DNA from: an uncultured Thermoplasmatales archaeon
Lineage (GTDB): Archaea; Thermoplasmatota; E2; DHVEG-1
Direction: 5' to 3'
NCBI GenBank assembly: GCA_964612945.1
Contig: CAZTFR010000001.1
Coordinates: 24,418-88,417, forward strand
DNA length: 64,000 nucleotides
How positions within the stretch are numbered: position 1 is the stretch's first letter; every line of letters begins with the position of its first letter. The notes beneath the pieces are model-generated. The model was not told the DNA's origin. It saw only the letters and a program-made list of their open reading frames with translations, and searched no databases. Of this stretch, positions 14,226 to 36,677 are shown one piece after another. A program made the translations under genes and the position numbers.

Positions 14226-14241
14226 AAAAAGGGGTTTTTCT

Positions 14242-17936: not shown

Positions 17937-17949
17937 GAGGGACAAAACT

Positions 17950-18357
17950 ATGAAGGAAAAACGATTTCATCACTGGCAAATGCCTGAAATTACAGAAAGG
18001 ACACTTCACCCGAAATACCATTTCCTCGTCCATCATGTACACAAGTTATCACTTGGTGAACAAACAGACATTGGAGCATTTACCTATATGAATGCAAAAT
18101 ATGGTATAAGCATTGAAAAAAATGTGCAAATCGGATCTCACTGTTCTTTATATTCAATTTCCACTATTGACAATAAAAAGGGCCCAATCACTATAAGAGA
18201 AAATGCCCGAATTGGAACGCATTCTACGATAATGCCGGGTGTTACAATTGGGAAAAACGCGATCGTTGGCGCCTACAGTTTTGTGACACAAGATATTCCT
18301 GACAATGTTGTTGCTCATGGAATACCTACAAAAATCATTAGGAGGAGAAAAGAATGA
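17950..18357 (+). CDS. left-handed beta-helix (hexapeptide) acetyltransferase, LegH/PglD-like
   Basis: Hexapeptide repeats (IGSHCSLYSIS, IGTHSTIMPGVTIGKNAIVGAYSFV). Confidence 0.7.
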   Translation: MKEKRFHHWQMPEITERTLHPKYHFLVHHVHKLSLGEQTDIGAFTYMNAKYGISIEKNVQIGSHCSLYSISTIDNKKGPITIRENARIGTHSTIMPGVTIGKNAIVGAYSFVTQDIPDNVVAHGIPTKIIRRRKE

Positions 18358-22506: not shown

Positions 22507-22514
22507 GTGGCACT

Positions 22515-23552
22515 ATGGCTGAAGAAATTAAAGTGGGAATTATCGGTTTTGGAAAAATGGGGAAGATTAGAAAAGATCTTATCGATAATTCTTCCTCGTT
22601 ACAACTTCAGGCGGTCTGTGATCCTCATCCGGAAACTAACGAGAATTCTCTTGACTGTCCTTTTTTTTCAGACTATCATGAGCTTTTAGAAAGAGATATT
22701 GATGCTGTGTTTATTGCCACACCAAACAAGTATACTCCCAACATTGTGATTGATTCTTTAAAGAAAAAGAAACATGTCTTTTGTGAGAAACCACCGGGTA
22801 GATCCATTGATGATGTAAAACGAATTATTGCGGTAGAACAAAGCGTTCCTGACAGGAAATTAAAGTTTGGGTTTAATCATCGATATCATGATAGTATTAT
22901 GGAAGCAGATGCGATAGTGAGAAGCGGACGATTGGGAAAGATACTATGGATTCGTGGTATCTATGGTAAGAGTGGGGGTGTTGGATTTGAACAACAATGG
23001 CGGAGTAATCCCACGATTGCAGGGGGCGGTATTCTCTTAGATCAAGGTATTCATATGATTGATCTTTGCCGCATGTTTTGTGGAGATTTTGATGAGGTAA
23101 AAAGTCTTGTTACGAATTCTCATTGGAATCTTGATGTAGAAAACGATGCTTTTGCCCTTCTGCGAAATAAAAAGAACCAGATTGCTATGATTCATTCATC
23201 TTCAACCCAATGGAAACATAAGTTTTCCCTTGAGATATCTCTTGATGAGGGCTACATTAACCTCTATGGTATTCTTTCCTCTACTCGTAGCTATGGGCAA
23301 GGTGAACAGCTGGTGTATGCCAAAAAACAATTTGAAGATGAGAGTTTTGCTATTGGTAACCCTCAGGAAAATGTCACCTATTTCAGCCATGATCGTTCAT
23401 GGGAGCGAGAAGTTGAGGATTTTGTCCGATGTATAAAAGAAGACCGTGCCGTTCAGACGGGCTCCTCACATGATGCACTCAAGGCGATGGAGCTTGTAAA
23501 TCAGATCTATAATGCTGATCAAAAGTGGAAAAAAGTGAAGGCTATATCATGA
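22515..23552 (+). CDS. Gfo/Idh/MocA-family oxidoreductase
   Basis: IKVGIIGFGKMGKIR Rossmann fold and the FCEKPPG motif. Confidence 0.7.
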   Translation: MAEEIKVGIIGFGKMGKIRKDLIDNSSSLQLQAVCDPHPETNENSLDCPFFSDYHELLERDIDAVFIATPNKYTPNIVIDSLKKKKHVFCEKPPGRSIDDVKRIIAVEQSVPDRKLKFGFNHRYHDSIMEADAIVRSGRLGKILWIRGIYGKSGGVGFEQQWRSNPTIAGGGILLDQGIHMIDLCRMFCGDFDEVKSLVTNSHWNLDVENDAFALLRNKKNQIAMIHSSSTQWKHKFSLEISLDEGYINLYGILSSTRSYGQGEQLVYAKKQFEDESFAIGNPQENVTYFSHDRSWEREVEDFVRCIKEDRAVQTGSSHDALKAMELVNQIYNADQKWKKVKAIS

Positions 23553-24580
23553 AACATGTTGTTGTGGTAAATAACATAAAACAGGCAGATATTAAACCCT
23601 ATAAATTATTCAATGATTTTCTTGCTGTTACAGAAAAGGAAGTCAAGCGAATTCTCATAGATAATCAACATCTCGTCGATGTAGTATGTCCTGCATGTCA
23701 GAGTGAGAAACGTGGTTTTGCGTTTGAAAAATTTGGGTTAACCTATCATGAATGTAGGCATTGTGGGACCTTGTACGTCTCACCGCGCCCTCCTGAAAAG
23801 GTAATCAATACGTTTTTCAAAGAATCACGCTCCATGGATTTCTGGAATGATACTATTGTAAAAAAAACAATACATGCGCGGGTTACCCATCTTGTACGAC
23901 CAGAGGTCTTATGGGTTGCCAATACAACTGAAAAATTTTTTACAAAACCAGCGACCTTTGTGGATATCAAGACAAGACATGCTGAGTTTCTTGAAGAAAT
24001 CCGGTCACTGAACCTCTTTGATCGTTATGTTGTAATAGATCCAGATAGAACAGTTCACCAGACGATTAACCAGAATACAGATTTTAATGTACTACCTGAC
24101 TCATTTTGGGAGATTCCTCCAAATACCGTTAAAGCACAAGCTATCACGAGTTTCTATGTGCTTGATCGCCTTTTTCAGCCAGAGCAGTTTCTAAAAAAGA
24201 TACAACCGATGCTTGCCGATAAGGGCTTGTTGTTCCTTGTTAGTTCTTCAAGTAGTGGTTTAGATCTTCGAGAGCTCTGGGATCGGGCGAAAACCATATT
24301 TCCACCAGAAAATATGAACATTTTTTCTGTGGAGGGAATAAAGACATTATTGGAAAACAATGGGTTTGAACTTCTTGAGTTAAGCACACCGGGTCAGTTG
24401 GATGTGGAATATATTAAGACCGCAATGAAAAACGAGTCAGATCTTCCCATCTCCCGGTTTATAGCTTATATGATCAAAAATCGTGATGAAGCCACTTTTC
24501 GCGCATTCCAAAATTTCCTACAGGAATATCAATTAAGTTCACATCTCCGCATTGTTGCGAGGAAGAAAAAGAATGAGTAA
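23525..24580 (+). CDS. NDP-sugar C-methyltransferase-like (zinc-ribbon N-domain plus class I SAM methyltransferase)
   Basis: CPACQS...x14...CRHCGTLYVSPRP zinc-binding N-domain. Architecture matches TylCIII/NovU-type sugar C-methyltransferases. Confidence 0.45.
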   Translation: MEKSEGYIMKHVVVVNNIKQADIKPYKLFNDFLAVTEKEVKRILIDNQHLVDVVCPACQSEKRGFAFEKFGLTYHECRHCGTLYVSPRPPEKVINTFFKESRSMDFWNDTIVKKTIHARVTHLVRPEVLWVANTTEKFFTKPATFVDIKTRHAEFLEEIRSLNLFDRYVVIDPDRTVHQTINQNTDFNVLPDSFWEIPPNTVKAQAITSFYVLDRLFQPEQFLKKIQPMLADKGLLFLVSSSSSGLDLRELWDRAKTIFPPENMNIFSVEGIKTLLENNGFELLELSTPGQLDVEYIKTAMKNESDLPISRFIAYMIKNRDEATFRAFQNFLQEYQLSSHLRIVARKKKNE

Positions 24581-25520
24581 AAAAATCCTAATATCTCCCA
24601 GTTCTTTTGGTACTTGTGGAAGTCAACCACTTGATCAGTTGAAAACCGCGGGATATCAAGCTCTTTTGAATACATTCAAAAGACGACTAACCGCTGATGA
24701 AGTACTTGAGTTGGGAGCCGGGTGTATCGGCATCATTGCAGGTGTAGAACCATTAAATGAAACCGTTATTGAAGGTCTTCCTCAGTTACAATGCATCAGT
24801 CGGTGTGGTGTAGGGATGGATAATATCGATCTTGAGAAGGCCCATGAGCATGGTGTTGTAGTCTGCAATACACCATATGGTCCTACCCGGGCGGTTGCTG
24901 AATTAACAGTCGGCCTCATTTTTGATGTGTTGCGTGGAATTTCCCGTAGAGACAGAAAAATTCGGCAGGGCCAATGGGATAAAAAGATGGGTTTTCTTCT
25001 TCAGGGAAAACAGGTAGGAATTATAGGGCTGGGGCGCATCGGAAGACTCGTGGGAGAGTTACTCTTGTGCCTCGGAGCTTGTGTTTATGGCTATGACATC
25101 AACCCTGATACTAGTTGGTTAAAAAAGCATAAAGTCCCTCTTATTCCCATGGAACAGCTTTTAAGAGAAAGCGATATCATCTGTGTACATACTTTCTATA
25201 CAAAAGGATCAGAATATTTACTTGGAAAAAAACAGCTTTCTATGATGAAAAAAGAGGCGATCCTTATCAATATGTCGCGCGGTGGTGTCGTCGATGAACA
25301 GGCATTATTTCAAAGATTACAATCCAATAAACTTTCAGGTGCGGCACTTGATGTCTTCGAACAAGAACCCTACAATGGTCCCCTAACAACACTTGATTCT
25401 GTTGTGATAACACCGCACATTGGATCCTATGCACGTGAGGCTCGGCTTCAAATGGAGCTTCAAGCCGTTCAGAATCTCGTGCATACACTTGAGAAAAAAT
25501 CCTCAGAAAATAAAAGATAA
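24552..25520 (+). CDS. D-isomer-specific 2-hydroxyacid dehydrogenase (SerA/PGDH-like)
   Basis: VGIIGLGRIGRLVGELL NAD-binding motif and the catalytic R/E/H region (ITPHIGSYAREAR). Confidence 0.7.
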   Translation: MLRGRKRMSKKILISPSSFGTCGSQPLDQLKTAGYQALLNTFKRRLTADEVLELGAGCIGIIAGVEPLNETVIEGLPQLQCISRCGVGMDNIDLEKAHEHGVVVCNTPYGPTRAVAELTVGLIFDVLRGISRRDRKIRQGQWDKKMGFLLQGKQVGIIGLGRIGRLVGELLLCLGACVYGYDINPDTSWLKKHKVPLIPMEQLLRESDIICVHTFYTKGSEYLLGKKQLSMMKKEAILINMSRGGVVDEQALFQRLQSNKLSGAALDVFEQEPYNGPLTTLDSVVITPHIGSYAREARLQMELQAVQNLVHTLEKKSSENKR

Positions 25521-25605
25521 AAATAAATGAATAATAGTATTATACATGAGTTGAATACGGAGTATTGCTCTATCAGTAGTGAGTAGAGGCGGAGGCAACA
25601 CTGGA

Positions 25606-26352
25606 ATGAATTTGGATTTTCATAAGAAAATTGTTTTGATCACAGGTGCCACACGAGGAATTGGAAAACAACTCGCACATGATTTTGAATCATCAGGAGC
25701 TCAGCTTATTCTAACTGGGACAAACAAAAAACAAATTCAAAAACTCAACACTAAACATAAGAATGATTCGAATAGAAGCTATGTGTGTGTTGATTTTCTT
25801 GACAGCGATTCTCGAGATACGTTCTTATCCTATATTAAAGCACAAAAAAAAATCGATGTCTGTGTAAACAATGCAGGAATCAACAGAGTAAATCCTATTT
25901 GGAATGCCAAAGCGAAAGATTGGGATGATATTGTTCAAGTAAATCTAACCATGCCCTATTTGATTTCTCGTGAGGTATCAATACTTATGAAGAAACAGAG
26001 ATATGGTCGCATAGTAAATATTGCTTCAATTTTTGGGGTGATAAGCCGGCAGCAGCGTTCGGTGTATACCTCTACGAAATCAGGATTACTTGGTATGACG
26101 ATGTCTATGGCACTTGATCTTGCCCCCTATAATGTTTTGGTGAATGCGGTTTCCCCCGGGTTTGTGCTAACGGATTTAACAAAAAAGATCCTTTCTAAGG
26201 CTGAAATGAGAGAGTTAGAAGATGAAATTCCTATGAGACGGATGGCTCAACCCCGTGATATTTCATCTGCTGTACTTTTCCTTGCAAGCGAGGTAAATTC
26301 GTATATTACCGGTAAAAATCTCATAGTTGACGGAGGATATGTTGATGTCTGA
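25606..26352 (+). CDS. short-chain dehydrogenase/reductase
   Basis: KIVLITGATRGIGKQLA and YTSTK (YxxxK). GGAGG about 10 nt upstream of the ATG at 25606. The ORF track starts earlier at 25579. Confidence 0.7.
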   Translation: MNLDFHKKIVLITGATRGIGKQLAHDFESSGAQLILTGTNKKQIQKLNTKHKNDSNRSYVCVDFLDSDSRDTFLSYIKAQKKIDVCVNNAGINRVNPIWNAKAKDWDDIVQVNLTMPYLISREVSILMKKQRYGRIVNIASIFGVISRQQRSVYTSTKSGLLGMTMSMALDLAPYNVLVNAVSPGFVLTDLTKKILSKAEMRELEDEIPMRRMAQPRDISSAVLFLASEVNSYITGKNLIVDGGYVDV

Positions 26353-27418
26353 AACGCTTTCGGTGAAATCAAATATTCGTGATTATTCGGTGTATTTTTC
26401 CACGAATTTCTCAGAAATCTTTTCTTCACTATCATTGCAGAAATCATTTTTTATTATCGATAAAAATGTGTTTTCTTTATATCGCAATCAACTTTCAGAA
26501 GTGATAGACACCGGGCGATTTGTTGCTGTTGAAGCTGTTGAACAGAACAAATCCCTTGAATATGTGAAACAATTAACTCGGCAGTTGTTGAGCAAAAATA
26601 TCAGAAAAAATCATACTTTAGTTGCCATTGGTGGTGGGATCATTCAGGATATCACTGGTTTTCTGGCAACTGTTTTGTTTCGTGGTGTTGAATGGGTTTT
26701 TTATCCCACCACATTACTTGCACAAAGTGATAGCTGTATTGGTAGTAAAACATCAATTAATGTTGATGAGTTCAAAAATCAGCTGGGCACGTTTTATCCA
26801 CCGGTGCGTATCATCCTGGATGTCGGTTTTTTACAAACCTTAAAACCTGCTGATATTACCTCAGGGCTTGGGGAGATTATTAAGGTTCATTTATTGGATG
26901 GCCCGCAGAGTCTTGCGTATATTTCTTCTCATTATTCACGTAAGGTTACAGATGTGTCGTTGTTTATGGATTTTATTCGACGGAGTCTTGCCATCAAAAA
27001 GAAGATTATTGAGCAAGATGAATATGATAGAGATTATCGAAATATTTTAAATTATGGTCATACATTTGGTCATGCAATCGAGTCAGTAACAGACTATGGA
27101 ATCTGTCATGGTCAGGCAGTAACCGTGGGGATGGATATGGCAAACTTTATTTCGATGGAGCAAGGATTTCTTGATGAATCGTGGTATACAAAGATGAAAG
27201 TCCCTCTTGTAAAGAATTATCCCGTGTATGATCTGACAGTAGAACAGCAACATCAGTTGATTTCAGCGTTGAAACGTGATAAAAAAAATATTGATGGTCA
27301 ACTTGTTGCCATTCTCACCGAAGGTCCGGGTAAGATGAAAAAAATTAAGATACCTTTTGATCAAACATTACGCGAGGTTCTTACCAAGTTTCAATCTCGT
27401 GTTGTGATGAATGTGTAA
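26327..27418 (+). CDS. 3-dehydroquinate synthase-like sugar-phosphate cyclase family protein
   Basis: LVAIGGGIIQDITGFLATVLFRGVEWVFYPTTLLAQSDSCIGSKTSIN matches the DHQS nucleotide/metal-binding core. YGHTFGHAIE His pair. Confidence 0.65.
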   Translation: MTEDMLMSETLSVKSNIRDYSVYFSTNFSEIFSSLSLQKSFFIIDKNVFSLYRNQLSEVIDTGRFVAVEAVEQNKSLEYVKQLTRQLLSKNIRKNHTLVAIGGGIIQDITGFLATVLFRGVEWVFYPTTLLAQSDSCIGSKTSINVDEFKNQLGTFYPPVRIILDVGFLQTLKPADITSGLGEIIKVHLLDGPQSLAYISSHYSRKVTDVSLFMDFIRRSLAIKKKIIEQDEYDRDYRNILNYGHTFGHAIESVTDYGICHGQAVTVGMDMANFISMEQGFLDESWYTKMKVPLVKNYPVYDLTVEQQHQLISALKRDKKNIDGQLVAILTEGPGKMKKIKIPFDQTLREVLTKFQSRVVMNV

Positions 27419-27438
27419 ACTTGTGAACAAAGGAAGGA

Positions 27439-28611
27439 TTGAGATCTATGGTACGTATCGTTGCGATGATTCCTGCCCGCTTGGAGAGTAAACGAATAAA
27501 AAATAAAAATTTACGTCTCCTCGATGGAAAGCCGTTGGTATGTCATGTCGCAGAAAAATGTAAGCAGGCTAAGGTGTTTGATGAGATTTATATCAACTCT
27601 GAGGCAGATGTGATTCAGAGCATTGCTGATGAGTATGGTGTAAAATTTTACAAGCGAGCGATGCATCTTGCTAGTGATGATGCCACAAATGACATGTTTG
27701 CCTTTGATTTTATAAAACATGTTGGATGTGACATTTTAATTCAGGTCAATCCGACGTCACCATTGATTTCTGTGGATGATATTCGACATTTTGTGACTAT
27801 GATGGTTGATGGAAACTATGATACATTGCATTCTGTAAAGGAAGAACAAATTGAAGCGGTGTATAATGGCACTCCGTTAAATTTTGATCCTAAAAAACCC
27901 ATGCCCCGATCTCAAGATCTGAAATCAGTGTTAGTGTTTTCCTCAGGTATCATGGGCTGGAAGGCAGACAATTATTATCATAACATGGACAAATATAACT
28001 GTGCTACCTATGGCGGTGATGGAAACATCGGATACTTTATTCTCAAAGGATTTTCCACTATTGATATCGATAATGAGGAGGATTTTCTGCTCGCTGAGGT
28101 AGTGGTGCAGTTTCAGAAAAAAGGGCGTCATCAGAAGGTAGCGTATTATAATCCAGATGATAGACAGAGGGTTCATGTTGAATCTGATGTTCCCAGCATT
28201 TTGAAAAAAGATGGTGTGAATACAAATGATTTATTTGATGCAAACCAGGAAATCGTCAATATCCCTGAAATTATACGGACCTTTCAGCAGAATCAATCGT
28301 GGAGTAAACGAATCATCAATACGGAAAATAATAGTGCAACCTTGATTTCTCAGATGCCTGGAGAAGGAAATAGACGACATTATCATGCAGATTGGAATGA
28401 ATGGTGGTATATTATTGATGGAACCTGGGAATGGGAAATTGAAGGAAAAATAAGACGTGTATCAAAAGGAGATGTTGTCTTTATTAAGAAGGGAAAAACA
28501 CATAAAGTAACTGCGGTAGGGGATGGTCCTGCGGTTCGGTTAGCAATAAGTAGAGAGGATGTTGATCATATCTATCCAGAAGAAAAAATAAATAAGACCC
28601 TACTCAAATAA
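27439..28611 (+). CDS. cytidylyltransferase (CMP-NeuAc synthetase-like N-domain) fused to C-terminal cupin
   Basis: N-terminus IVAMIPARLESKRIKNKNLRLLDGKPLV. C-terminal RRHYHADWNEWWYIIDGTWEWEI...GDVVFIKKGKTHKV cupin barrel. Confidence 0.65.
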   Translation: MRSMVRIVAMIPARLESKRIKNKNLRLLDGKPLVCHVAEKCKQAKVFDEIYINSEADVIQSIADEYGVKFYKRAMHLASDDATNDMFAFDFIKHVGCDILIQVNPTSPLISVDDIRHFVTMMVDGNYDTLHSVKEEQIEAVYNGTPLNFDPKKPMPRSQDLKSVLVFSSGIMGWKADNYYHNMDKYNCATYGGDGNIGYFILKGFSTIDIDNEEDFLLAEVVVQFQKKGRHQKVAYYNPDDRQRVHVESDVPSILKKDGVNTNDLFDANQEIVNIPEIIRTFQQNQSWSKRIINTENNSATLISQMPGEGNRRHYHADWNEWWYIIDGTWEWEIEGKIRRVSKGDVVFIKKGKTHKVTAVGDGPAVRLAISREDVDHIYPEEKINKTLLK

Positions 28612-28631
28612 CGGATACTTGTGTGTAATCA

Positions 28632-29894
28632 TTGGAGGAGTATATTTTGCATCGAAGTAGTATCTTTAATATTAGAATAGATTTCGAAAAAAGCCATGAT
28701 TCTTATCTGTATGATAAAAATCGGAAGAGATATTTCCTTGATTTCTTTGGACAATACTCTGCGCTTCCGTTAGGCTATAATCATAGAATATTTCAGGAAG
28801 AACACTTTCAAAAAACAATACAAAAAATCATTGGTGTAAAGGTAACCAATTGTGAAATCATCTCTGATGAGGCACGTGAGCTACTACAAAAATTTTCGAA
28901 TCATAAGGATATGAAAAACTATGAATATTTTCATTTTTCATGTACGGGTGCGCTTGCTGTTGAAGCAGCTTTAAAAACTGCTATGGATCAAAAGCATTCT
29001 TCTGATCCAAAAGTGATTAGTCTACGTGAGAGTTTTCATGGCATTAATGGCTATGGAGGTTTTGTGACCGATCGGTTCTACCCGGTGAGCAAACGGCTTG
29101 ACGGATTTCCAACGCTGAAATGGTATCAGATTCATAATCCTAAAGTACTGTACTCAAACAATACAATTGATACCGCTGCAACAGAGAAAGGTTTTTCAAC
29201 ATTCAAAAGAGAGCTTGACGAGGTCATAAAAAAGGAGGGAGGCGAAAAAATAGCAGCATTACTAATTGAACCAATACAGGCGACCTATGGCGATAATTAT
29301 TTCCCTGAGGACTTCTTTGTTTATGTCCGAGAGTTCTGTGATGAGCATCACATTGCATTAGTATTTGATGAAATTCAAACGGGGTTTGGTACAACTGGGA
29401 AAATGTGGTATTTTCAACATCTACCGGTAGAGCCTGATATTGTTGCCTTTGGTAAAAAAGCGCAAGTATCAGGTATTATGGCAAAAAAAGAGTTCGATAC
29501 GATTTTTGAACGCCCTATACGTCTCGAAGTCACATTTGATGGGGATCTCATCGACATGGTGCGTTGTACTACCATTCTTGACGCCTATAAGAAATTTCAT
29601 CTATTAGAAAACGCTCAACAGCGGGGACAGCAGCTTCTGAAAAGATTACAAGCAATTGACAGTATACAAAACGTTCGCGGGCTTGGTCATCTTCTCTGCT
29701 TTGATTTCTCTTCATCAAAAGAGCAGGATGCATTTGCACAGACGGCCTTTCACAATGGCTTGCTTTTCAACAAAACACGGGATGTCTCAATTCGTTTACG
29801 ACCAAATCTGAATCTCTCTTCAGAAGAAGTAGATGAAGGACTTCAAATTATTACCCGCTCATGTGCAAAACCACTTGTAACCTCTACTTCATAA
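28632..29894 (+). CDS. class-III PLP aminotransferase
   Basis: FDEIQTGFGTTGKMW and AFGKK (Schiff-base Lys). The frame begins with TTG. GGAGGAG plus an 8-nt spacer precedes a second in-frame TTG at 28650. Confidence 0.7.
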   Translation: MEEYILHRSSIFNIRIDFEKSHDSYLYDKNRKRYFLDFFGQYSALPLGYNHRIFQEEHFQKTIQKIIGVKVTNCEIISDEARELLQKFSNHKDMKNYEYFHFSCTGALAVEAALKTAMDQKHSSDPKVISLRESFHGINGYGGFVTDRFYPVSKRLDGFPTLKWYQIHNPKVLYSNNTIDTAATEKGFSTFKRELDEVIKKEGGEKIAALLIEPIQATYGDNYFPEDFFVYVREFCDEHHIALVFDEIQTGFGTTGKMWYFQHLPVEPDIVAFGKKAQVSGIMAKKEFDTIFERPIRLEVTFDGDLIDMVRCTTILDAYKKFHLLENAQQRGQQLLKRLQAIDSIQNVRGLGHLLCFDFSSSKEQDAFAQTAFHNGLLFNKTRDVSIRLRPNLNLSSEEVDEGLQIITRSCAKPLVTSTS

Positions 29895-29906
29895 GACAGG
29901 ATTCTC

Positions 29907-30998
29907 ATGATGCAGCAATCAAAAAAATATGTCTTTTTTGTCATCACTTTCGGCAGTATTTATGATCGGGTGCTTCCCTTAATTGAGGAAAAAAAAGAGA
30001 AGGGGGAAATTATTGTTGTTGCAACGACTGATCAGATTGAAGCGTTCTTTCGAAAATATACTGATTTTACAGTCATTCGAACCAAAGTTCATCCGGATCT
30101 TATCACGAGAAATACGAAATATCTCCTTCTTATTAATAGTATTAAAAGTAAAATTGAATACCGCCGTCTTTTCAAACATATTCAGGGTGCTGATGTCTAT
30201 TTTTGTAATGTTGGGTATGCCATGGTTATTTATAGTTACATAAAGAAATTGGGAAAAAACAATAGAGTTTTTTACTATGGAGATACACCTATTTCGCAAG
30301 ATCCCGCAATTAATAAATCTCTTCTTCAGTACACTGTAGAAAAAAGTGTCCGCACATTTCTTATGAGACAAGCTACAAAATGGCTTCTGGGGATACCAAC
30401 AATTGTGCGAACGAACATGAATATTCCCTTTTGGGTGTTGGACGAATCTTTTTTTGATACGGTTTTTGTAATTGATAAGTATGTTGGTGATAAATCATCA
30501 TTAAATAAATACGTTGGTAAAATTAAGGAACTTCAGGGGAAAAAGATTTTAGTGGCAACGGAGGATGCAGTCGCCTGTGGCAACATTGATGAGCCGAATT
30601 TTACAGAGTATATGAATCGTTTAAAGGATATACTTGATATGATTGCTCCGGGGCAGTATGCCCTTAAGCCGCATCCTCGTTTGGATAAATTATTTGGCGA
30701 TATGAAAAAAGTGGATGCGGTAATTCCACCTTATATTCCCTTTGAATTTGTCTTGAATCATAAATGGGAGAGTATTATTGGAATTAATTCATTAGCGCTT
30801 ATTCATTCTTCTTTGATGACTGATGCTCCTGTGTTTTCGATTATTGATGCAGTTAATTTCAAAGATAAAAAGGTTCAACAAATGTTTCGATCCTGGCTTT
30901 CGAAGGAATCAAAAGATGCCATTCGTTTTCCGTCTAGTCTTGATGAGTTAAAAGAGTCGTTACTTGAAATTTCGAAGAAAAAGGAGCAAGTACTATGA
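29907..30998 (+). CDS. TagF/KpsC-like putative transferase (paralog 3)
   Basis: ALKPHPRLDKLF (K-PHP-R) motif and the C-terminal GT-B-like half. Confidence 0.4.
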   Translation: MMQQSKKYVFFVITFGSIYDRVLPLIEEKKEKGEIIVVATTDQIEAFFRKYTDFTVIRTKVHPDLITRNTKYLLLINSIKSKIEYRRLFKHIQGADVYFCNVGYAMVIYSYIKKLGKNNRVFYYGDTPISQDPAINKSLLQYTVEKSVRTFLMRQATKWLLGIPTIVRTNMNIPFWVLDESFFDTVFVIDKYVGDKSSLNKYVGKIKELQGKKILVATEDAVACGNIDEPNFTEYMNRLKDILDMIAPGQYALKPHPRLDKLFGDMKKVDAVIPPYIPFEFVLNHKWESIIGINSLALIHSSLMTDAPVFSIIDAVNFKDKKVQQMFRSWLSKESKDAIRFPSSLDELKESLLEISKKKEQVL

Positions 30999-31035
30999 AG
31001 AAACGGTATTGTTTATCAGTTGAGGATGTACGCAT

Positions 31036-32487
31036 ATGAGCAAAATGGGAAAAGTGCTATTTATTGTGCATGATGTCTATCAGGATGATAACGAGTTTCC
31101 CTTGGGTGTTGGGTATCTTGCAGCAGTGCTTCGTCAACAGGGTGCTGATGTGACGGTCTGTTGCCAGGACATCTACCATTATCGCAATGAAGAATTAGCT
31201 GAAAAATATCTAAAAAATCAGACGTGGGATGTAATTGGAATTGGGTTTCTTGCCGCTCGTTTTAAGGAAACGATTATTGATCTTTGTAAGACGGTTAATC
31301 AGCATAAAAAGAATGCAAAATTAGTATTGGGCGGTCATGGCCCATCTCCGATCCCTGAGTTTGTGCTACAGACGACACAGGCAGATGTTGTAATACTTGG
31401 TGAGGCTGAGGAGACCATTGGAGATCTTCTTCAAGCCGTGGTGAACGGTGAATCCTATCAAGATATCAAGGGTATTGCGTATCGGGATGGTGATCAGATC
31501 GTTGTGAATGATCGCAGAAAGCCTGTTCGTCATCTCGATGAGCTTCCTTTTCCTGCATGGGATCTTTTTCCCATGGATATTTACACATCAAACATGCAAT
31601 ATATGGGGCAGGATCCTAATGAAAAAGCTATTCAATTAATTACGAGTCGTGGATGTGTGAATAAATGCACCTTTTGCTATCGGTTAGAACCCGGTATTCG
31701 CTTTCGTAGTTTGGATAATGTTGTACAGGAAATGAAAGCCCTGTATGATACCTATGGTGTCACCTATTTTGTCATTCAAGATGAACTCTTTGTTGCATCA
31801 GTGAAACGCTTTGAGAAATTCATTGATACTCTCGAAAACTATGGGCTGCTTCATAAGATTAAATACAATATTAGCGTGGGAATTCGTGCAGATGTTGCAA
31901 CAGAGGAGATGGCTGAGCTTTTAAAAGAAACCGGGTGTGTCTATGTCAATATTGGGTTTGAATCGGTCTCCCAACAATGTCTTGATGACTATCGAAAAAA
32001 TACAACCGTCGAACAAAACTATGCAACTGCTGAGTTGATGAGAAAATATGAGATCTCCATGGGGATCAATTTCATCTGGGGAATCTGGAGTGACAGCGAG
32101 CAAACACTGAAAGATAATGTCGCTTTTATTAAAAAATATAACCGCTACGATGAATTACGAACGATTCGACCGGTCACTCCATATCCTGGTAGTGAACTCT
32201 ATTATCAAGCAATTGATCATGGTCTCCTAAAGGGTCCTTCAGATTTTTTTAACAAGTTTCGTAATTCTGACTTGCTCACGGTAAATTTCACGAAGTATTC
32301 TGAAAAAGAGTTTTACACCCTATTGTTTCAGGCTAACAAGGAGCTTATCTTAGATCATTATCGGCACACCGGCGATAGAAAGGCCGCAGAAAAAATGATA
32401 GCTGATTTCCGCAATCTCTATTTCAAAGGCTATGTTCAATTCCGGGGCGCCCGACATTTCGAGAAAAACCCTATAAGCAGTCACTAG
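31036..32487 (+). CDS. B12-binding-domain radical SAM enzyme (class B radical SAM methyltransferase-like)
   Basis: N-terminal cobalamin-binding-like domain (VLFIVHDVY...GVGYLAAVLRQQG). CxxxCxxC-type cluster region SRGCVNKCTFCYR. Confidence 0.7.
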   Translation: MSKMGKVLFIVHDVYQDDNEFPLGVGYLAAVLRQQGADVTVCCQDIYHYRNEELAEKYLKNQTWDVIGIGFLAARFKETIIDLCKTVNQHKKNAKLVLGGHGPSPIPEFVLQTTQADVVILGEAEETIGDLLQAVVNGESYQDIKGIAYRDGDQIVVNDRRKPVRHLDELPFPAWDLFPMDIYTSNMQYMGQDPNEKAIQLITSRGCVNKCTFCYRLEPGIRFRSLDNVVQEMKALYDTYGVTYFVIQDELFVASVKRFEKFIDTLENYGLLHKIKYNISVGIRADVATEEMAELLKETGCVYVNIGFESVSQQCLDDYRKNTTVEQNYATAELMRKYEISMGINFIWGIWSDSEQTLKDNVAFIKKYNRYDELRTIRPVTPYPGSELYYQAIDHGLLKGPSDFFNKFRNSDLLTVNFTKYSEKEFYTLLFQANKELILDHYRHTGDRKAAEKMIADFRNLYFKGYVQFRGARHFEKNPISSH

Positions 32488-32657
32488 ATACATATCGGTA
32501 CACTCGTAAAAATCGATCTGAAAGATATCCTTCTTTAGCAGTGGTTGATATAATAATGAAAAGATTAAAAAGAGGATTCTTTATTTTCTGAATACCCGTG
32601 TTCTCCAAATTGAGAGGGGGAGTTGGGAAAAAAAAGAAAATATGAGGGAAGAAAAAA

Positions 32658-33524
32658 ATGTATGATTCAACCTACACAGATGTACCATTTATTATTGCAG
32701 AAATTGGCATTAATCATAATGGATCACTTGAGATTGCAAAGCAACTGATAGACATGGCAGCAGACTGCGGATGTAATGCGGTGAAGTTCCAAAAACGAGC
32801 CATAGATGTCGTCTACACAGAAGATTATTTGGCATCACCGCGAAAGAGTCCGTGGGGGGCTACACAACGAGAACAAAAAAAAGGTCTTGAGTTTGAACAA
32901 CAAGAATACAATAAAATCGAACGTTATTGTCGACAGAAAAATATCGAATGGTTTGCCTCGGCATGGGATGAACAAAGTCAACAGTTTCTGCGGCAGTATA
33001 AACTCAACTACAATAAAATTGCATCAACCATGCTTACCAACATTCCCTTTCTGGAATTGGTTGCACAAGAAAAGAAACACACCTTCATCTCAACTGGTAT
33101 GAGTACCTATAAAGAAATTGACAAGGCTGTTCAGATTTTCAACGATTACGATTGTCCCTTTACTCTGATGCATTGTGTTTCCACCTATCCCAGTGAAGAT
33201 GAGGAATGCAATATCTTAATGGTACAAACATTACAAGAGCGATACAATTGCGATGTTGGATACAGTGGTCATGAGCGGGGAGTTACTCCCTCTATTCTTG
33301 CGGTAGCATTTGGTGCCCGCGTTATCGAACGACATATCACTCTTGATCGAACAATGTATGGAAGTGATCAAGCAGCCTCCCTTGAAAAACGAGGGCTTGA
33401 AATACTGGTGCGAGACTCCCGATCCGTGCAGGAAATACTCGGTGATGGAGAAAAATATTTTACGGATAAAGAAAAACCGATTGCCAAAAAACTCCGGTAT
33501 TTTGAGGTCAACCATTATGAATGA
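32658..33524 (+). CDS. NeuB-family synthase (SpsE-like, no SAF domain)
   Basis: FIIAEIGINHNGSLEIAKQLIDMAA and FQKR motifs. 288 aa without the C-terminal SAF domain. Confidence 0.7.
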   Translation: MYDSTYTDVPFIIAEIGINHNGSLEIAKQLIDMAADCGCNAVKFQKRAIDVVYTEDYLASPRKSPWGATQREQKKGLEFEQQEYNKIERYCRQKNIEWFASAWDEQSQQFLRQYKLNYNKIASTMLTNIPFLELVAQEKKHTFISTGMSTYKEIDKAVQIFNDYDCPFTLMHCVSTYPSEDEECNILMVQTLQERYNCDVGYSGHERGVTPSILAVAFGARVIERHITLDRTMYGSDQAASLEKRGLEILVRDSRSVQEILGDGEKYFTDKEKPIAKKLRYFEVNHYE

Positions 33525-34764
33525 ACCTATGTTGCAGCATCCTTCGCAGAATCCGTATGGGAAATGGATCGGAAATGAGCTTCGGTATGTCACTGAGGTT
33601 CTTGACTCTGAAAATAAGGAAAATAAAAAAAATCCATGGGTAAATCGTTTTGAAACAGCCTTTGCCAAACGCTTTGGTATGAACTACGGTATAGCCCATA
33701 ATTCAGGGACATCAACGCTTCATTCTTGTCTTGCGGCAGCAGGTGTTCACGCCGGTGATGAAGTGATTTGCCCTGCGTATACTGTGATTATGAATGCGTT
33801 TGCTATCCTTCATCAGAACGCAGTCCCCGTGTTTGCCGACTCTGATCCTGAGACATTTAACATTGATCCCAGTGATGTAAAACGGAAAATTACCGATAAA
33901 ACCAAAGCCATAATTGCGGTCCATATGCATGGTCTTCCTGCAGATATGGGTCCTCTCATGAAACTTGCACGACAGCATAATCTTGTCGTCATTGAGGATA
34001 GCGCGCAATGTGTGCTTGGATGGTACAAAAATCGTCTGGCAGGAACCATTGGTGATATGGCAAGTTTTAGTTTTGAAACGAAAAAACATCTCTCCACCTT
34101 TGAAGGTGGGATGGTGCTGACAAATAATAAGACCTATGCAGAAACAATCAGAAAAGTCGGTGGATTGGGATATAAAACACTCTCTGCTGATCAGGCACTA
34201 CGAACCGTGTTACCAACTGATTTTCAAGACCCCCATTATAAACGTCATGATATCCTTGGCTGGAATTATCGAATGACAGAGCTTACCGCAGCGGTAGGGC
34301 TTGCTCAACTTGAACGAGTTGATGAAATTGTGGAAAGACGGCAGCAGGTTGCCGCACTTTTTGATCAGGCAGTGGAGGATTGTGAGTGGATGATCCCGCA
34401 AAAAATACCTTCTCATATGACACATACGTATTGGACGTATGCAGTGCGCTATCTGGGTGATCAGTACACGAATGTGTCCTGGAAAGAGTTTTACCATCGG
34501 TATCTTAAAAATGGAGGGGATGGCTTTTATGGGGCTCTGTCGCTTCAGTATCAGGAACCGGTGATGAAAGAGAAACAATGGCTGGGAACCTACCTTCCTG
34601 ATTGTGATGTCTATACTGGTCAATTTGAGTATCATGATGGCCTATGTCCTGTCGCTGAAGAGATCCAACCCACAGTTATGCAGTTTAAGACAAACTATCG
34701 TAACCTAAATATTGCACGGAAAAAAACTGACATCCTGCGACAGACGATTAAAGAAATGAGTTAA
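33517..34764 (+). CDS. DegT-family sugar aminotransferase (SpsC-like)
   Basis: Start taken at ATG 33517 in an ATGAATGA overlap with the upstream stop. The ORF-track start 33310 would overlap the preceding gene by 200 nt. PLP region FSFETKKHLSTFEGG. Confidence 0.75.
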   Translation: MNEPMLQHPSQNPYGKWIGNELRYVTEVLDSENKENKKNPWVNRFETAFAKRFGMNYGIAHNSGTSTLHSCLAAAGVHAGDEVICPAYTVIMNAFAILHQNAVPVFADSDPETFNIDPSDVKRKITDKTKAIIAVHMHGLPADMGPLMKLARQHNLVVIEDSAQCVLGWYKNRLAGTIGDMASFSFETKKHLSTFEGGMVLTNNKTYAETIRKVGGLGYKTLSADQALRTVLPTDFQDPHYKRHDILGWNYRMTELTAAVGLAQLERVDEIVERRQQVAALFDQAVEDCEWMIPQKIPSHMTHTYWTYAVRYLGDQYTNVSWKEFYHRYLKNGGDGFYGALSLQYQEPVMKEKQWLGTYLPDCDVYTGQFEYHDGLCPVAEEIQPTVMQFKTNYRNLNIARKKTDILRQTIKEMS

Positions 34765-34781
34765 CAAAGGAGAGTTTAGCT

Positions 34782-35507
34782 TTGGATGAATATGGATTTA
34801 TTACGGTACGAACCACGTCTTCTCGTTTAAAAGAAAAATGTCTGCTTCCCTTTGGAGAACAAACGGTGATTGAACATGTTATTGATCGTGCGCTGCATTT
34901 CAATTTTATCCCAGTGATCTGCACGACGACGAACGCTACTGATAACATACTGGAAACCATCGCAAACAAACATAATGTTTGTTGTTTTCGTGGAAGTGAA
35001 AAAGACAAACTGAAGCGTTGGCTTGATTGCTGCAACCATTTTTCTATTGACTCATTTGTTAGTATTGATGCCGATGATCCCTTCTTTGATGAGGAGTCTG
35101 ATCATCACTGTATGAAACTGCTTCATGAGCAGCAATTGGATGCGGTTTATCCTCCAGAAAATATCTATGTTGGAAGCGTTGGATATGCACTTACACGAGA
35201 TATCATCAACCGAGCATGCAAACTAAAATCAAGTGATGATACAGAGATGATGTGGTATTATTTAGAAAAAGTCCCCGATCTTAAAAAAACTGTGCTGCCC
35301 GTTTTTGACGTTGAAGAAACAAAAATCAGATTGACACTTGACTATGAGGAAGATTATTGGATGCTAGTCAGCGTTCTTCGAATGCTCGATTCCTATCCAA
35401 CACGTCGCGACATTGAACAATTATTTATCAGAAATCCTGACCTGCATAAAATCAACTGGTTCCGAAACCAGCAATGGAAACAAGGCCAACTTGAGAAAAA
35501 AATTTAA
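34782..35507 (+). CDS. CTP-transferase-3 family cytidylyltransferase (SpsF-like)
   Basis: FITVRTTSSRLKEKCLLPFGEQTVIEHVI N-terminus typical of the acylneuraminate cytidylyltransferase superfamily. Confidence 0.6.
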   Translation: MDEYGFITVRTTSSRLKEKCLLPFGEQTVIEHVIDRALHFNFIPVICTTTNATDNILETIANKHNVCCFRGSEKDKLKRWLDCCNHFSIDSFVSIDADDPFFDEESDHHCMKLLHEQQLDAVYPPENIYVGSVGYALTRDIINRACKLKSSDDTEMMWYYLEKVPDLKKTVLPVFDVEETKIRLTLDYEEDYWMLVSVLRMLDSYPTRRDIEQLFIRNPDLHKINWFRNQQWKQGQLEKKI

Positions 35508-35526
35508 CCCTGAGGTAGGCAGAGAC

Positions 35527-36363
35527 ATGGAAAAAAAAACGATATCTCGGCTTTTTGGTCTTGACGGCAAGGTTGCTGTGATCACTGGTGGTGCAGGCAT
35601 GCTTGGGGAGATGCATGCGGAAATTATTGCAGAAGCCGGCGGTATACCGGTGTTGGTAGACATTCAAATAGAGCAAGCAGAACAAAAAGCAAAGCGGATA
35701 CAAAAAAAGTTTGCTGTTCCCACGTTAGCGGTGAAAACTGATATCACGAAGCAAGAGGAGGTAAGACGTCTTCTGAAAACAGTGCTGCAGCGATATGGTC
35801 GCGTTGATATTCTTATCAATAATGCGGCACGTAATCCAAGAGTTGGTCAGTCAGAAGGCGTTGAGTTATCACGATTGGAACATTTTTCCCTGCAACAGTG
35901 GCATGCGGATCTGGCTGTGGGACTGACCGGTGCTTTTCTCTGTAGTAAGGTGATTGGTGAGGAGATGGCAAAGCGCCATGCAGGTGTTATAATCAATATT
36001 TCCTCAGATTTGGGAGTGATCGCCCCAGATCAGCGTTTGTATAAAAAACCTAATTGTTCTGAGGAGAAACAACCGGTAAAACCGGTGACGTATTCGGTGG
36101 TGAAATCTGGATTACATGGGTTAACCAGGTATCTGTCCACCTATTGGGCTGAAAAAAATATTCGAGTCAATTCACTCTCTCCAGGAGGAGTATATGAAAA
36201 TCAACCAGATAGTTTTGTACAAAAAGTATCTCATTTGATTCCTCTGGGGAGAATGGCAAAAAAAGATGAATATAAAGGTGCTATTTTGTTTCTTTGCTCT
36301 GATGCGTCTTCCTATATGACTGGCGCAAATCTTATTGTCGATGGAGGAAGAACTGTCTGGTAG
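35527..36363 (+). CDS. short-chain dehydrogenase/reductase
   Basis: KVAVITGGAGMLGEMHA and YSVVKSG (YxxxK). Start taken at Met 35527 to avoid overlapping the upstream gene. Confidence 0.7.
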   Translation: MEKKTISRLFGLDGKVAVITGGAGMLGEMHAEIIAEAGGIPVLVDIQIEQAEQKAKRIQKKFAVPTLAVKTDITKQEEVRRLLKTVLQRYGRVDILINNAARNPRVGQSEGVELSRLEHFSLQQWHADLAVGLTGAFLCSKVIGEEMAKRHAGVIINISSDLGVIAPDQRLYKKPNCSEEKQPVKPVTYSVVKSGLHGLTRYLSTYWAEKNIRVNSLSPGGVYENQPDSFVQKVSHLIPLGRMAKKDEYKGAILFLCSDASSYMTGANLIVDGGRTVW

Positions 36364-36380
36364 TTTTGTGAGGTGTAACG

Positions 36381-36677
36381 ATGAGTGTGTATTGTTTTGA
36401 TATTGATGGAACAATTTGTTCAAAAGAATCTCCGGAAAATTATGGGAAAGCAAAGCCGTTTAAGCAAATCATAAACCGAATTAATAAATTGTATGTGGAA
36501 GGCCATACTATTTATTTTTTTACCTCTCGGCATATGCTGAAAGAACCGGTTACAAAGGAATGGTTTGCTCGGCATGACGTGCGCTATCATCAGATCTTTT
36601 TTGGAAAACCTTTGGCTCAGGTATATGTTGATGATTTAGCGCTTAATCCTGATGAGTTTTTGAAAAATGAAAAATAA
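36381..36677 (+). CDS. small HAD-superfamily phosphatase-like protein
   Basis: CFDIDGTIC (DxDGT motif I) in a 98-aa protein. Confidence 0.4.
   Translation: MSVYCFDIDGTICSKESPENYGKAKPFKQIINRINKLYVEGHTIYFFTSRHMLKEPVTKEWFARHDVRYHQIFFGKPLAQVYVDDLALNPDEFLKNEK

Follow-up and report, generated by a model that had tools for sequence, protein, structure and literature searches.

A conserved gene cassette around a dehydroquinate-synthase-type enzyme in an archaeal surface-glycan island: candidate pathway for a CMP-activated sugar or sugar mimic

Introduction

Why should a gene related to 3-dehydroquinate synthase (DHQS) stand among the cytidylyltransferase and transferase genes of a surface-glycan island? 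The question is raised by a stretch of 64,000 nucleotides from an uncultured Thermoplasmatales archaeon (GenBank assembly GCA_964612945.1, contig CAZTFR010000001.1, positions 24,418 to 88,417 of the forward strand), called the window below and numbered from its first nucleotide. A first-pass annotation, made from the sequence alone, had read 22515-36677 as one previously uncharacterised pathway for a nucleotide-activated, aminated and C-methylated carbocyclic or higher-carbon sugar, by analogy to aminocyclitol or Kdo8N biosynthesis. Our analysis leads to another partition and another chemistry. The DHQS-like gene (26339-27418) is the core of a cassette (~21016-32487) that apparently encodes a conserved pathway, so far uncharacterised, for making a modified sugar or sugar mimic in CMP-activated form; its product stands a real chance of being a glycan residue of a new class.

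Results and Discussion

The DHQS-like protein and its active site

The cassette, with its transferase genes, comprises the following open reading frames (ORFs), given with the evidence for each assignment. SDR stands for short-chain dehydrogenase/reductase, SAM for S-adenosylmethionine and PLP for pyridoxal phosphate.

21016..22506 (+): putative GT-B transferase, 496 aa, with a KPHPR motif; sub-threshold match to TagF/Glyphos_transf PF04464 (18.9 bits, cut-off 22.1)
22515..23552 (+): GFO/IDH/MocA NAD(P) oxidoreductase (GFO2); Pfam
23549..24580 (+; ORF from 23525): methyltransferase with a zinc ribbon and a class I SAM domain; Methyltransf_23, 53.7 bits
24573..25520 (+; ORF from 24552): D-2-hydroxyacid dehydrogenase (2-Hacid_dh); Pfam
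25606..26352 (+; ORF from 25579): classical SDR ketoreductase (SDR2), overlapping the start of the DHQS-like gene; Pfam
26339..27418 (+; ORF from 26327): TIGR04425-family DHQS-type enzyme, the cassette core; DHQ_synthase and DHQS_C
27448..28611 (+; ORF from 27439): cytidylyltransferase-cupin fusion (CTP2); CTP_transf_3 at residues 8-135, Cupin_2 at 305-370
28632..29894 (+): class-III (omega-type) PLP aminotransferase; Aminotran_3 PF00202, 218.9 bits
29907..30998 (+): GT-B glycosyltransferase with a KPHPR (HP) motif, distantly like polysialyltransferases; no Pfam match, AlphaFold2 (AF2) model and Foldseek
31036..32487 (+): class B (B12-binding) radical SAM enzyme; Pfam B12-binding and Radical_SAM

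The enzyme genes named in the first-pass annotation are there as intact plus-strand ORFs with Pfam matches above the curated cut-offs. They are not ordinary housekeeping genes inserted in the island, none reaching the cut-off of an equivalog model (AroB, ornithine/lysine aminotransferase, SerA and others). The gene list itself was incomplete, as it omitted the GT-B gene at 29907-30998 and the one at 21016-22506, just outside the start that it had assigned.

The core protein passes the NCBIfam model TIGR04425 (453.5 bits, cut-off 400) and fails the AroB equivalog TIGR01357 (279.7 bits, cut-off 305). TIGR04425 is a hypothetical equivalog entitled [quoted passage not shown], and the family is one already delimited by NCBI curators, with no function, product or paper attached. 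The nearest solved structures are genuine DHQSs (2.5e-47), with DOIS, EEVS and DDGS farther off.

To place the protein within this superfamily, the window protein and eleven family members were aligned with reference sequences from the supplement of PMC4426668 (eLife 2015), namely the DHQSs of A. nidulans, B. subtilis, T. thermophilus and S. solfataricus, together with RifG, BtrC, ValA and one DDGS. The window protein is of the DHQS/aminoDHQS type at all 14 active-site positions, among them R130, D146, K152, N162, E194, K197, K250, R264, N268, H271, H275, H287 and K356. The same residues are identical in 9 of the 11 other members, P0100 and P0120 carrying K197H. Positions 250, 264, 268, 275 and 356 read K, R, N, H and K in the window protein, against K, G, E, H and N in DOIS, M, R, D, P and V in EEVS and Y, C, A, P and V in DDGS; DOIS thus differs by R264G, N268E and K356N, EEVS by K250M, N268D, H275P and K356V, and DDGS at five fingerprint positions. 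Nine family-invariant substitutions, such as S148C, G/A154S and G/T118Q (A. nidulans numbering), set the TIGR04425 proteins apart from AroB.

We take K250 and R264 of DHQS to bind the substrate carboxylate, and K152, N162, N268, H275, K356 and R130 to bind the phosphate. With all 14 positions of the DHQS type, the substrate should, judging from sequence, be a C7 2-keto acid 7-phosphate resembling DAHP, the 7-phosphate of 3-deoxy-D-arabino-heptulosonate, and not glucose-6-phosphate or sedoheptulose-7-phosphate.

Distribution and co-inheritance of the cassette

Relatives of the DHQS-like protein number in the thousands in the protein database, the named ones coming from Nitrososphaeria, Promethearchaeota, Desulfobacterales and Flavobacteriales. 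A scan with one genome per species yielded at least 597 loci related to it, from hundreds of species of bacteria and archaea. The best 80 of these at least 597 loci are spread over very many phyla of both domains. A few cultured strains are among them, namely Joostella sp. CR20 (L035), which carries the full type of cassette, and Butyrivibrio sp. MB2005 (L069), Lachnospiraceae AB2028 and Lachnospiraceae NC2004, which carry the distant type described below. Precomputed Pfam assignments reveal a recurring neighborhood of CTP_transf_3, HpcH/HpaI aldolase, 2-Hacid_dh, SIS_2, SDR, DHQS-like and GFO/IDH/MocA genes, often with Methyltransf_23, sometimes with a PF04199 hydrolase, and flanked by glycosyltransferases and flippases.

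Partners were counted by BLASTP of the window's proteins against all ORFs of 87 loci. An SDR is present in 79/87, nearly always directly upstream of the DHQS-like gene; GFO follows with 47, 2-Hacid_dh with 43, SIS_2 with 42 and a cytidylyltransferase with about half of the loci, and the HpcH aldolase (22), the PF04199 hydrolase (13) and Methyltransf_23 (10, inside the cassette) are rarer. In 54 loci, 6 kb or more is available on each side; 29 of these have SIS_2, GFO and 2-Hacid_dh together, 19 have none of the three and only 6 have a mixture. Where GFO and 2-Hacid_dh occur, a cytidylyltransferase is also there in 29/31 loci. The first-pass annotation had named conserved co-occurrence elsewhere, beforehand, as the test of its reading, and such co-occurrence is what we found; with many unrelated genomes showing the combination, it is no product of chance. 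The invariant core is the SDR plus the TIGR04425 enzyme, with SIS_2, GFO, 2-Hacid_dh and a cytidylyltransferase as usual companions. The window fits this partner set with an SDR directly upstream, GFO, 2-Hacid_dh and CTP_transf_3; its cassette itself is without SIS_2, a GmhA-like SIS_2 gene lying 19 kb away.

A more distant branch of the DHQS-like family (34-43% identity) often pairs the SDR and DHQS-like genes with a thiamine pyrophosphate (TPP) enzyme and an FGGY kinase, and some of its loci also carry a HAD gene and a NeuB-like or HMGL-like gene. Given these other partners, only the SDR/DHQS-like pair is universal.

A further observation on this branch concerns L060, L062, L063, L052, L067, L069, L074 and L078 (Lachnospiraceae, Butyrivibrio, Verrucomicrobia and others), where a gene of ~610 aa adjoins the pair and NeuB-like genes are also present. 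Pfam assigns the neighbors in L069 and L062 to a TPP enzyme, an FGGY kinase, HAD and a NeuB-like or HMGL-like protein. A TPP enzyme, a kinase and an aldolase-type (HMGL-like/NeuB-like) gene are reminiscent of IolD, IolC and IolJ of inositol catabolism, and a route that first forms and then opens a ring is conceivable there.

We found no relevant literature on the TIGR04425 family or on dehydroquinate synthase in CMP-sugar or glycosylation contexts. The description of the pathway as uncharacterised stands to the extent that no characterised pathway or paper was found; the cassette is not unique to the window, and its family had already been delimited as TIGR04425.

The variant found in the window and its partner enzymes

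The closest cassettes are those of L004, L005 (a Promethearchaeota metagenome-assembled genome, MAG) and L089, in which GFO, Methyltransf_23, 2-Hacid_dh, SDR and DHQS-like genes follow each other in the same order as in the window; the cassette proteins of L004 and L005 are 42-64% identical to those of the window. These three cassettes carry SIS_2, HpcH and a plain cytidylyltransferase. The window has instead the cytidylyltransferase-cupin fusion and the class-III aminotransferase, two genes that adjoin the SDR/DHQS-like pair in a thaumarchaeal MAG (L058; cupin 69% and aminotransferase 44% identity) and likewise in a SAR86 genome (L018; 54% and 39%). On a KSB1 contig (L042) only the fusion gene is visible beside the pair. 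The metagenomic contig of P0003 carries SDR, DHQS-like, CTP-cupin, Aminotran_3, a 353-aa glycosyltransferase and a 481-aa B12 radical SAM protein (assigned by Pfam), which is the gene order of window positions 25579-32487. As the fusion/aminotransferase pair and the GFO-Methyltransf_23 order each recur elsewhere, the window combines two recurring sub-variants. The protein of 21016-22506 is 60% identical over 405 aa to the product of the gene directly upstream of the cassette GFO gene in L089, and this position of its homologue argues that it belongs with the cassette.

Comparison with characterised families gives partial indications of what each enzyme does. The NCBIfam matches of GFO2 (inositol 2-dehydrogenase, UDP-GlcNAc 3-dehydrogenase, xylose 1-dehydrogenase) all fall below cut-off, and its nearest PDB entry is a myo-inositol 2-dehydrogenase (1e-24); we propose a role as an aldose-7-phosphate 1-dehydrogenase or, alternatively, as a cyclitol dehydrogenase. 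For the D-2-hydroxyacid dehydrogenase, matched best by the phosphoglycerate dehydrogenase (233 bits) and PdxB (108 bits) models, both below cut-off, we propose a role as a 7-phosphoheptonate 2-dehydrogenase.

The methyltransferase carries an N-terminal four-cysteine ribbon (CPAC...CRHC, at residues 55 and 77) ahead of the Methyltransf_23 domain. It had been called a TylCIII-like C-methyltransferase, a label that we would drop: Methyltransf_13 and Methyltransf_14 domains are absent even at E<=5, and there is no PDB match at E<=0.01.

In CTP2, PF02348 scores 74.9 bits, against 75.7 and 52.5 bits for the other two cytidylyltransferases of the window (cut-off 22.6), and Cupin_2 scores 54.5 bits. 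The nearest PDB entry of CTP2 is a CMP-Neu5Ac synthetase (7.5e-16), and the protein fails the specific equivalogs, with 81 bits against the 205.7 of PseF and a score well below the cut-off of KdsB. The cupin domain is of the metal-binding type; its PDB sequence matches are weak and to generic cupins only, and its single-sequence AF2 model has a pLDDT of 37.5.

The class-III aminotransferase scores 299 bits with LAT_fam, below the cut-off of 520.8, and is nearest to the lysine epsilon-aminotransferase of M. tuberculosis (8e-51). The assignment of the radical SAM enzyme to class B held when its motifs were checked: it has B12-binding (PF02310, 52 bits) and Radical_SAM (PF04055, 62.8 bits) domains and a CX3CX2C motif (CVNKCTFC) at residue 207. 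It falls in no characterised subfamily, with 20/20 NCBIfam matches below cut-off and BchE as the best (144 bits against 481).

Similarity to paralogues in the same island is low, with SDR2 26-28% identical to SDR1 and SDR3, the N-terminal domain of CTP2 26% identical to CTP1, and no BLASTP match between GFO1 and GFO2 at E<=1e-5. Two partners seen in other cassettes were compared as well: the nearest solved relatives of the cassette-type SIS_2 are phosphoheptose isomerases (9e-25), and HpcH is nearest to the 2-keto-3-deoxy-sugar aldolase YfaU (4.5e-37).

Two clusters in other genomes are recorded here for their own sake. At 1202-12133 of L088 (Thermodesulfovibrio sp. GCA_037478475.1), genes for a short, SAF-less NeuB, CTP_transf_3, class-III aminotransferase, rSAM-SPASM protein, methyltransferase and glyoxalase adjoin GDP-mannose genes, making up another uncharacterised CMP-sugar cluster with a class-III aminotransferase. 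At 11042-14220 (-) of L089, directly after the full DHQS-like cassette and on the strand opposite to it, stands a Kdo-like set of DAHP_synth_1 (KdsA-like, 245 aa), KdsB-like cytidylyltransferase, HAD phosphatase and rSAM-SPASM genes.

Transferases and the predicted donor

The protein encoded at 29907-30998 has no Pfam match at E<=5, and two of its 34 homologues carry a precomputed polysialyltransferase match (PF07388). Its AF2 model (pLDDT 90.2) has a GT-B fold, and the Foldseek matches in the PDB are GT-B enzymes, including the Pasteurella sialyltransferase 2ii6. The KPHPR motif is near-invariant (K254, P255, H256 and R258 at least 90% conserved); HP motifs are characteristic of bacterial sialyltransferases and Kdo transferases. 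Homologues stand directly after the cassette in L089 and in the P0003 contig. BLASTP aligns the 29907-30998 and 21016-22506 proteins over the shared KPHPR stretch only. Elsewhere, GT29-like and MptE/Maf-like genes flank the fusion gene (L058), and a Capsule_synth (KpsC/S-type) gene adjoins the cassette (L005).

Flanking sialyl- and Kps-type transferases, taken together with the CMP-Neu5Ac-synthetase-like N-terminal domain, point to a CMP-linked acidic donor as the product of the cassette. The earlier expectation of a nucleotide-activated (here CMP-activated), aminated and methylated product remains a reasonable reading.

A proposed route and its competitors

How could such a donor be made around a DHQS-type enzyme? 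From the enzyme families and the co-occurrence observed, we infer a route from sedoheptulose-7-phosphate to a CMP-activated dehydroquinate-like acid by way of DHQS-type cyclisation. It is the reading that we tentatively favor, at somewhat less than even confidence.

Sedoheptulose-7-phosphate would first be converted to a heptose-7-phosphate by an isomerase, in the window perhaps the GmhA-like protein of 3550-4221 and/or the fused cupin. Oxidation at C1 by GFO2 would give a 7-phosphoheptonate, and oxidation at C2 by the 2-hydroxyacid dehydrogenase a hept-2-ulosonate-7-phosphate, that is, a DAHP-like C7 keto acid with the configuration of sedoheptulose. The DHQS-type enzyme would then carry out its NAD- and Zn-dependent oxidation, phosphate elimination and reduction, with cyclisation to a dehydroquinate-like carbocyclic keto acid. 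Its ketone could be reduced by the SDR, or the ring ketone aminated by the class-III aminotransferase, and methyl groups would come from the zinc-ribbon methyltransferase and the B12 radical SAM enzyme. Finally, the cytidylyltransferase would form a CMP adduct at the alpha-hydroxy-acid centre, and the HP-motif GT-B transferases (21016-22506 and 29907-30998) would attach the residue to a glycan.

GmhA-type SIS_2 enzymes act on a C7 sugar 7-phosphate, so the carbon count matches the C7 7-phosphate scaffold of the DHQS pocket. With the isomerase and the two oxidations that link heptose-7-phosphate to the 2-keto acid, the route draws on precisely the trio of genes inherited along with the core. 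Aldose 1-dehydrogenases are found in the GFO family, and 2-Hacid_dh is nearest to SerA and PdxB, oxidisers of phospho-aldonates. That the end product is a CMP-activated carbocyclic ulosonic-acid analogue, a hydroxylated, aminated and methylated quinate-like "carba-sugar acid" made from sedoheptulose-7-phosphate and put on surface glycans by the HP-motif GT-B enzymes, is a more doubtful proposition.

Several points weigh against this route. Its chemical steps are all deduced. The likeness of GFO2 to inositol dehydrogenases fits tailoring after cyclisation equally well. No lactonase was found within the window, and the PF04199 hydrolase of 13 loci is absent there. The HpcH/HpaI pyruvate aldolase of 22 loci has no role in the route and suggests an alternative supply of a DAHP-like acid. 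Since the cassette of the window has no SIS_2 of its own, an isomerase role for the GmhA-like gene at a distance, or for the cupin, is a conjecture. Nineteen more distant loci, several of them with a TPP enzyme and an FGGY kinase, are without SIS_2, GFO and 2-Hacid_dh, which means that this feed-in route is not universal. Finally, transfer from a CMP-activated carbocycle, which has no ring oxygen, by a sialyltransferase-like enzyme is to our knowledge chemically unprecedented.

A first alternative is that the DHQS-like enzyme acts as a phospholyase without cyclisation, a possibility that we consider rather unlikely. The enzyme would remove the terminal phosphate of a 3-deoxy-2-ulosonate phosphate to give an omega-deoxy keto-ulosonic acid, as a counterpart of the nucleotide-sugar 4,6-dehydratases. 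The SDR (as ketoreductase), the cupin (as keto-isomerase or epimerase) and the aminotransferase would tailor a true ulosonic acid, to be CMP-activated and transferred like Kdo or sialic acid. The sialyl- and Kdo-transferase-like enzymes that adjoin the cassettes do need a real anomeric centre. The universal SDR, the cupin and the aminotransferase would mirror the dehydratase/isomerase/aminotransferase/reductase toolkit of deoxysugar pathways, and SIS, aldolase and cytidylyltransferase parallel KdsD, KdsA and KdsB. Moreover, a related island described below (L090) has HpcH, a HAD phosphatase and CTP_transf_3 and no DHQS-like gene in the corresponding slot, suggesting that the DHQS-like/SDR pair replaces a phosphatase. 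However, the catalytic residues of DHQS are all unchanged, and the enol-pyranose formed from a C7 substrate cyclises spontaneously, as established for DHQS chemistry; longer C8 or C9 substrates would not fit an unchanged DAHP-sized pocket. We also know of no natural glycan residue that is a 7-deoxy-heptulosonic acid.

A second alternative is that the substrate might be DAHP itself or a stereoisomer of it, taken from primary metabolism or formed by HpcH/HpaI from pyruvate and a tetrose-4-phosphate, and the product dehydroquinate- or quinate-like. GFO, SIS_2 and 2-Hacid_dh would then act later, as cyclitol dehydrogenase, keto-isomerase and reductase. A fingerprint identical to that of DHQS, closest structures that are genuine DHQSs, the YfaU-like aldolase in a quarter or so of the loci counted (22/87) and the resemblance of GFO2 to inositol dehydrogenases are all consistent with this. 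We nevertheless regard it as unlikely, as the substrate of a GmhA-type isomerase is a heptose phosphate and not a cyclitol, the tight co-inheritance of SIS_2, GFO and 2-Hacid_dh is better explained by a substrate-supply trio, and an aldolase is missing from about half of the complete cassettes. Many archaea, in addition, have no DAHP synthase.

The cassette could also make no glycosyl donor of its own, supplying instead a carboxylic-acid substituent, for example an N-acyl group, for the neighboring legionaminic-type or short-NeuB nonulosonic acids. It sits between two nonulosonic-acid modules in the window, PtmF/PtmB/PtmA-like trios adjoin it in L009, L010, L012, L016 and L070, and unusual N-acyl groups are known from nonulosonic acids. 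This is very unlikely, as the cassette nearly always has its own cytidylyltransferase (29/31) and is accompanied by dedicated GT-B genes; many loci have no NeuB nearby, and the cassette holds no acyl-activating or acyl-transfer enzyme.

Least probable are the two analogies of the first-pass annotation, a DOIS/EEVS-type aminocyclitol pathway from glucose-6-phosphate or sedoheptulose-7-phosphate and a Kdo8N-type (KdnA/KdnB) route in which an octulosonic acid is oxidised and transaminated. In their favor, genes for a cyclase-family enzyme, an aminotransferase and an enzyme resembling inositol dehydrogenases stand together, and the DHQS-like protein has a weak Fe-ADH_2 match (26 bits, below the cut-off of 28). 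Against them, the fingerprint, of the DHQS/aminoDHQS type at 14/14 positions, differs from those of DOIS, EEVS and DDGS, the aminotransferase is of class III and nearest to lysine epsilon-aminotransferase where DOIS pathways use a DegT-type enzyme, and the PDB matches of the aminotransferase and of the DHQS-like protein, judged by chain names, include no KdnA or KdnB entry.

A connection with bradyrhizose and caryose, carbocyclic sugars of bacteria, was also considered and found no support. In the one relevant paper, the bradyrhizose genes are given as not known and a dTDP-glucose dehydratase cluster is pointed out, without mention of a DHQS.

The downstream NeuB module and a swappable slot

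The genes that follow the cassette, which had been counted as part of the same pathway, form a separate block closed by a flippase gene:

32658..33524 (+): short NeuB-family synthase without a SAF domain (NeuB2); PF03102, 245 bits
33517..34764 (+; probable start, ORF from 33310): DegT/LegC/PseC-type sugar aminotransferase; PF01041, 270 bits
34782..35507 (+): third CTP_transf_3 cytidylyltransferase (CTP3); PF02348, 52.5 bits
35527..36363 (+; probable start, ORF from 35413): PtmA-like SDR (SDR3); Pfam
36684..38207 (-): Wzx/MurJ-type polysaccharide flippase, closing the island; Polysacc_synt_3, 105 bits

NeuB2 falls below the cut-offs of the NeuB and PseI equivalogs and belongs to a family of short, SAF-less NeuB proteins whose homologues are 65-77% identical across phyla. 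The DegT protein scores ~205 bits with the LegC and PseC models and SDR3 184 bits with PRK09186 and 130 bits with PtmA, all below cut-off, and CTP3 has no NCBIfam match.

Independent evidence on this block comes from a 72-kb Logan contig of SRR7048219 (L090). Its flanks are those of the window, with NeuB+SAF and NeuC upstream and a flippase, a TrmB-like gene and MMPL downstream, and it retains the glycosyltransferase, short NeuB, DegT, CTP and SDR genes, with the flippase in the same position. Its slot (2771-9996), however, holds an HpcH aldolase, a B12 radical SAM enzyme, Methyltransf_21, CTP_transf_3, 2-Hacid_dh, an epimerase and a HAD phosphatase, without a DHQS-like gene. Since L090 keeps the NeuB/DegT/CTP/SDR block with a different cassette upstream, the block is independent and the cassette lies in a variable slot. 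The block is a separate module of the nonulosonic-acid type, the island has a swappable middle slot, and 22515-36363 is not a single pathway but two units, the cassette (~21016-32487) and the short-NeuB/DegT/cytidylyltransferase/SDR module (32658-36363).

NeuB-like genes adjoin distant members of the DHQS-like family, and NeuB2 was considered as the supplier of the DHQS-like substrate; for the window we rejected this, as the block occurs in L090 without a DHQS-like gene.

Layout of the island and other genes of the window

Two further modules of the island lie upstream:

13257..20943 (+): sialic/legionaminic-type module with PtmF-like, cytidylyltransferase (PtmB-like), PtmA-like, NeuB+SAF, NeuC, hexapeptide acetyltransferase, DegT and CBS-fused dehydratase genes
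2997..5315 (-): heptose module with GmhB, a GmhA-like SIS_2 isomerase (3550-4221) and an HddA-like kinase

From 13257 to 36363, all 22 genes run in the same direction, with intergenic distances of -29 to +85 nt and, as the sole exception, 170 nt before NeuB2. The surface-glycan island stacks three CMP-sugar modules, which have one cytidylyltransferase apiece, and the cassette (~21016-32487) is the middle one. Farther upstream, the island also includes GDP-mannose-dehydratase-like genes. In the upstream module, NeuB (TIGR03569, 418.6, cut-off 399.65) and NeuC (TIGR03568, 399.5, cut-off 235.9) pass their models, and the remaining genes of 13257-20943 are below the NCBIfam equivalog cut-offs, including those of the LegB, LegC and PtmA models. 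Directly before this module, at 11584-13248 (+), a 554-aa protein has a Capsule_synth (KpsC/KpsS-type) domain above cut-off. Together with the 21016-22506 and 29907-30998 proteins, it makes three candidate ulosonic-acid transferases for the three cytidylyltransferases.

In the heptose module, GmhB passes PRK08942 (186.6, cut-off 178), and the gmhA (100.6) and HddA (169.5) matches are below cut-off. The GmhA-like isomerase and the SIS_2 of the cassette type in L006 share 33% identity, and the module may be an in-trans source of heptose-7-phosphate for the DHQS-like cassette. With an SDR epimerase/dehydratase included, the heptose-type module spans 2997-6250 (-), and a GT2 gene follows at 6418-7245.

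The other observations concern single genes. The GDP-mannose 4,6-dehydratase ORF at 9692-10543 (+) encodes 283 aa, its profile alignment begins at position 61 only, and 237 nt of seemingly non-coding DNA precede it; the ORF may be 5'-truncated, frameshifted or endowed with an unusual start. Past the flippase, at 38820-39608 (+), lies a SAM hydroxide adenosyltransferase gene (fluorinase/chlorinase family, DUF62), where L090 has flavin reductase and DUF357 genes instead. A queuine tRNA-guanine transglycosylase of the bacterial/eukaryotic type (56784-58705; TIGR00430, above cut-off) adjoins a queuosine-precursor transporter, on a contig that otherwise looks archaeal, with NucS at 53223-53987 (PRK04247, above cut-off) and a TFIIE/TrmB-like gene at 39996-40391; that the nearest relative of the cassette lies in a Promethearchaeota MAG also speaks for an archaeal origin.

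Significance and comparison with known systems

Beyond the curated family, this work adds a tightly co-inherited six-gene unit with its variants, transferases and cultured hosts, a DHQS-type pocket that retains its carboxylate- and phosphate-binding residues, and a concrete route from sedoheptulose-7-phosphate. The carriers include environmentally important groups, namely Nitrososphaeria, SAR86, Pelagibacteraceae, Verrucomicrobiota and rumen Lachnospiraceae. If the product were a carbocyclic or 7-deoxy C7 acid on CMP, it would be a new sugar class in microbial glycobiology, and the "dehydroquinate synthase" labels that some sources give to such genes in glycan loci would need correction. If the carba-sugar acid proved true, glycans would have a building block of a new class, dehydroquinate-synthase chemistry a new biosynthetic use and pseudo-glycosyl transfer a new type, spread over hundreds of lineages of bacteria and archaea, ammonia-oxidising and Asgard archaea among them.

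Set beside known systems, the cassette enzyme shares with DHQS and aminoDHQS the two-domain fold family (PF01761 and PF24621) and the 14/14 active-site positions. It differs from AroB in its setting, as it lies within glycan loci, in translational coupling with an SDR and in the company of a cytidylyltransferase, and not in a shikimate or 3-amino-5-hydroxybenzoic acid (AHBA) pathway. EEVS, EVS and DDGS, along with DOIS, of the aminocyclitol and sunscreen pathways belong to the same superfamily, and the substrate proposed here would keep the stereochemistry of sedoheptulose. The fingerprint residues are different, however, the cassette has no DegT-type inosose aminotransferase, and its product would carry a carboxylate.

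For the two proposed oxidations, the nearest parallel would be the Epd/PdxB steps of pyridoxal phosphate synthesis, whose logic GFO2 and 2-Hacid_dh may repeat by analogy, 2-Hacid_dh being related to PdxB and SerA; the cassette substrate would be C7 rather than C4, and GFO2 is unrelated to Epd. The Kdo pathway (KdsD, KdsA, KdsC, KdsB) has in common with the cassette an SIS isomerase, a 2-keto acid phosphate, phosphate removal, CMP activation by CTP_transf_3 and Kps/sialyl-type transferases. In the cassette, though, the isomerase is GmhA-type (C7) and not KdsD, KdsA is missing, two oxidations or HpcH would supply the keto acid, and the phosphate would be removed by a DHQS-type lyase with an SDR instead of a HAD phosphatase. 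Legionaminic and other CMP-nonulosonic clusters of the Campylobacter type resemble it in CTP_transf_3 activation and in PtmA/PtmF-like SDR and GFO paralogues, and occur in the same island, sometimes adjacent; the cassette itself has no NeuB/NeuC-type synthase or epimerase, and the paralogues share ~26% identity or less.

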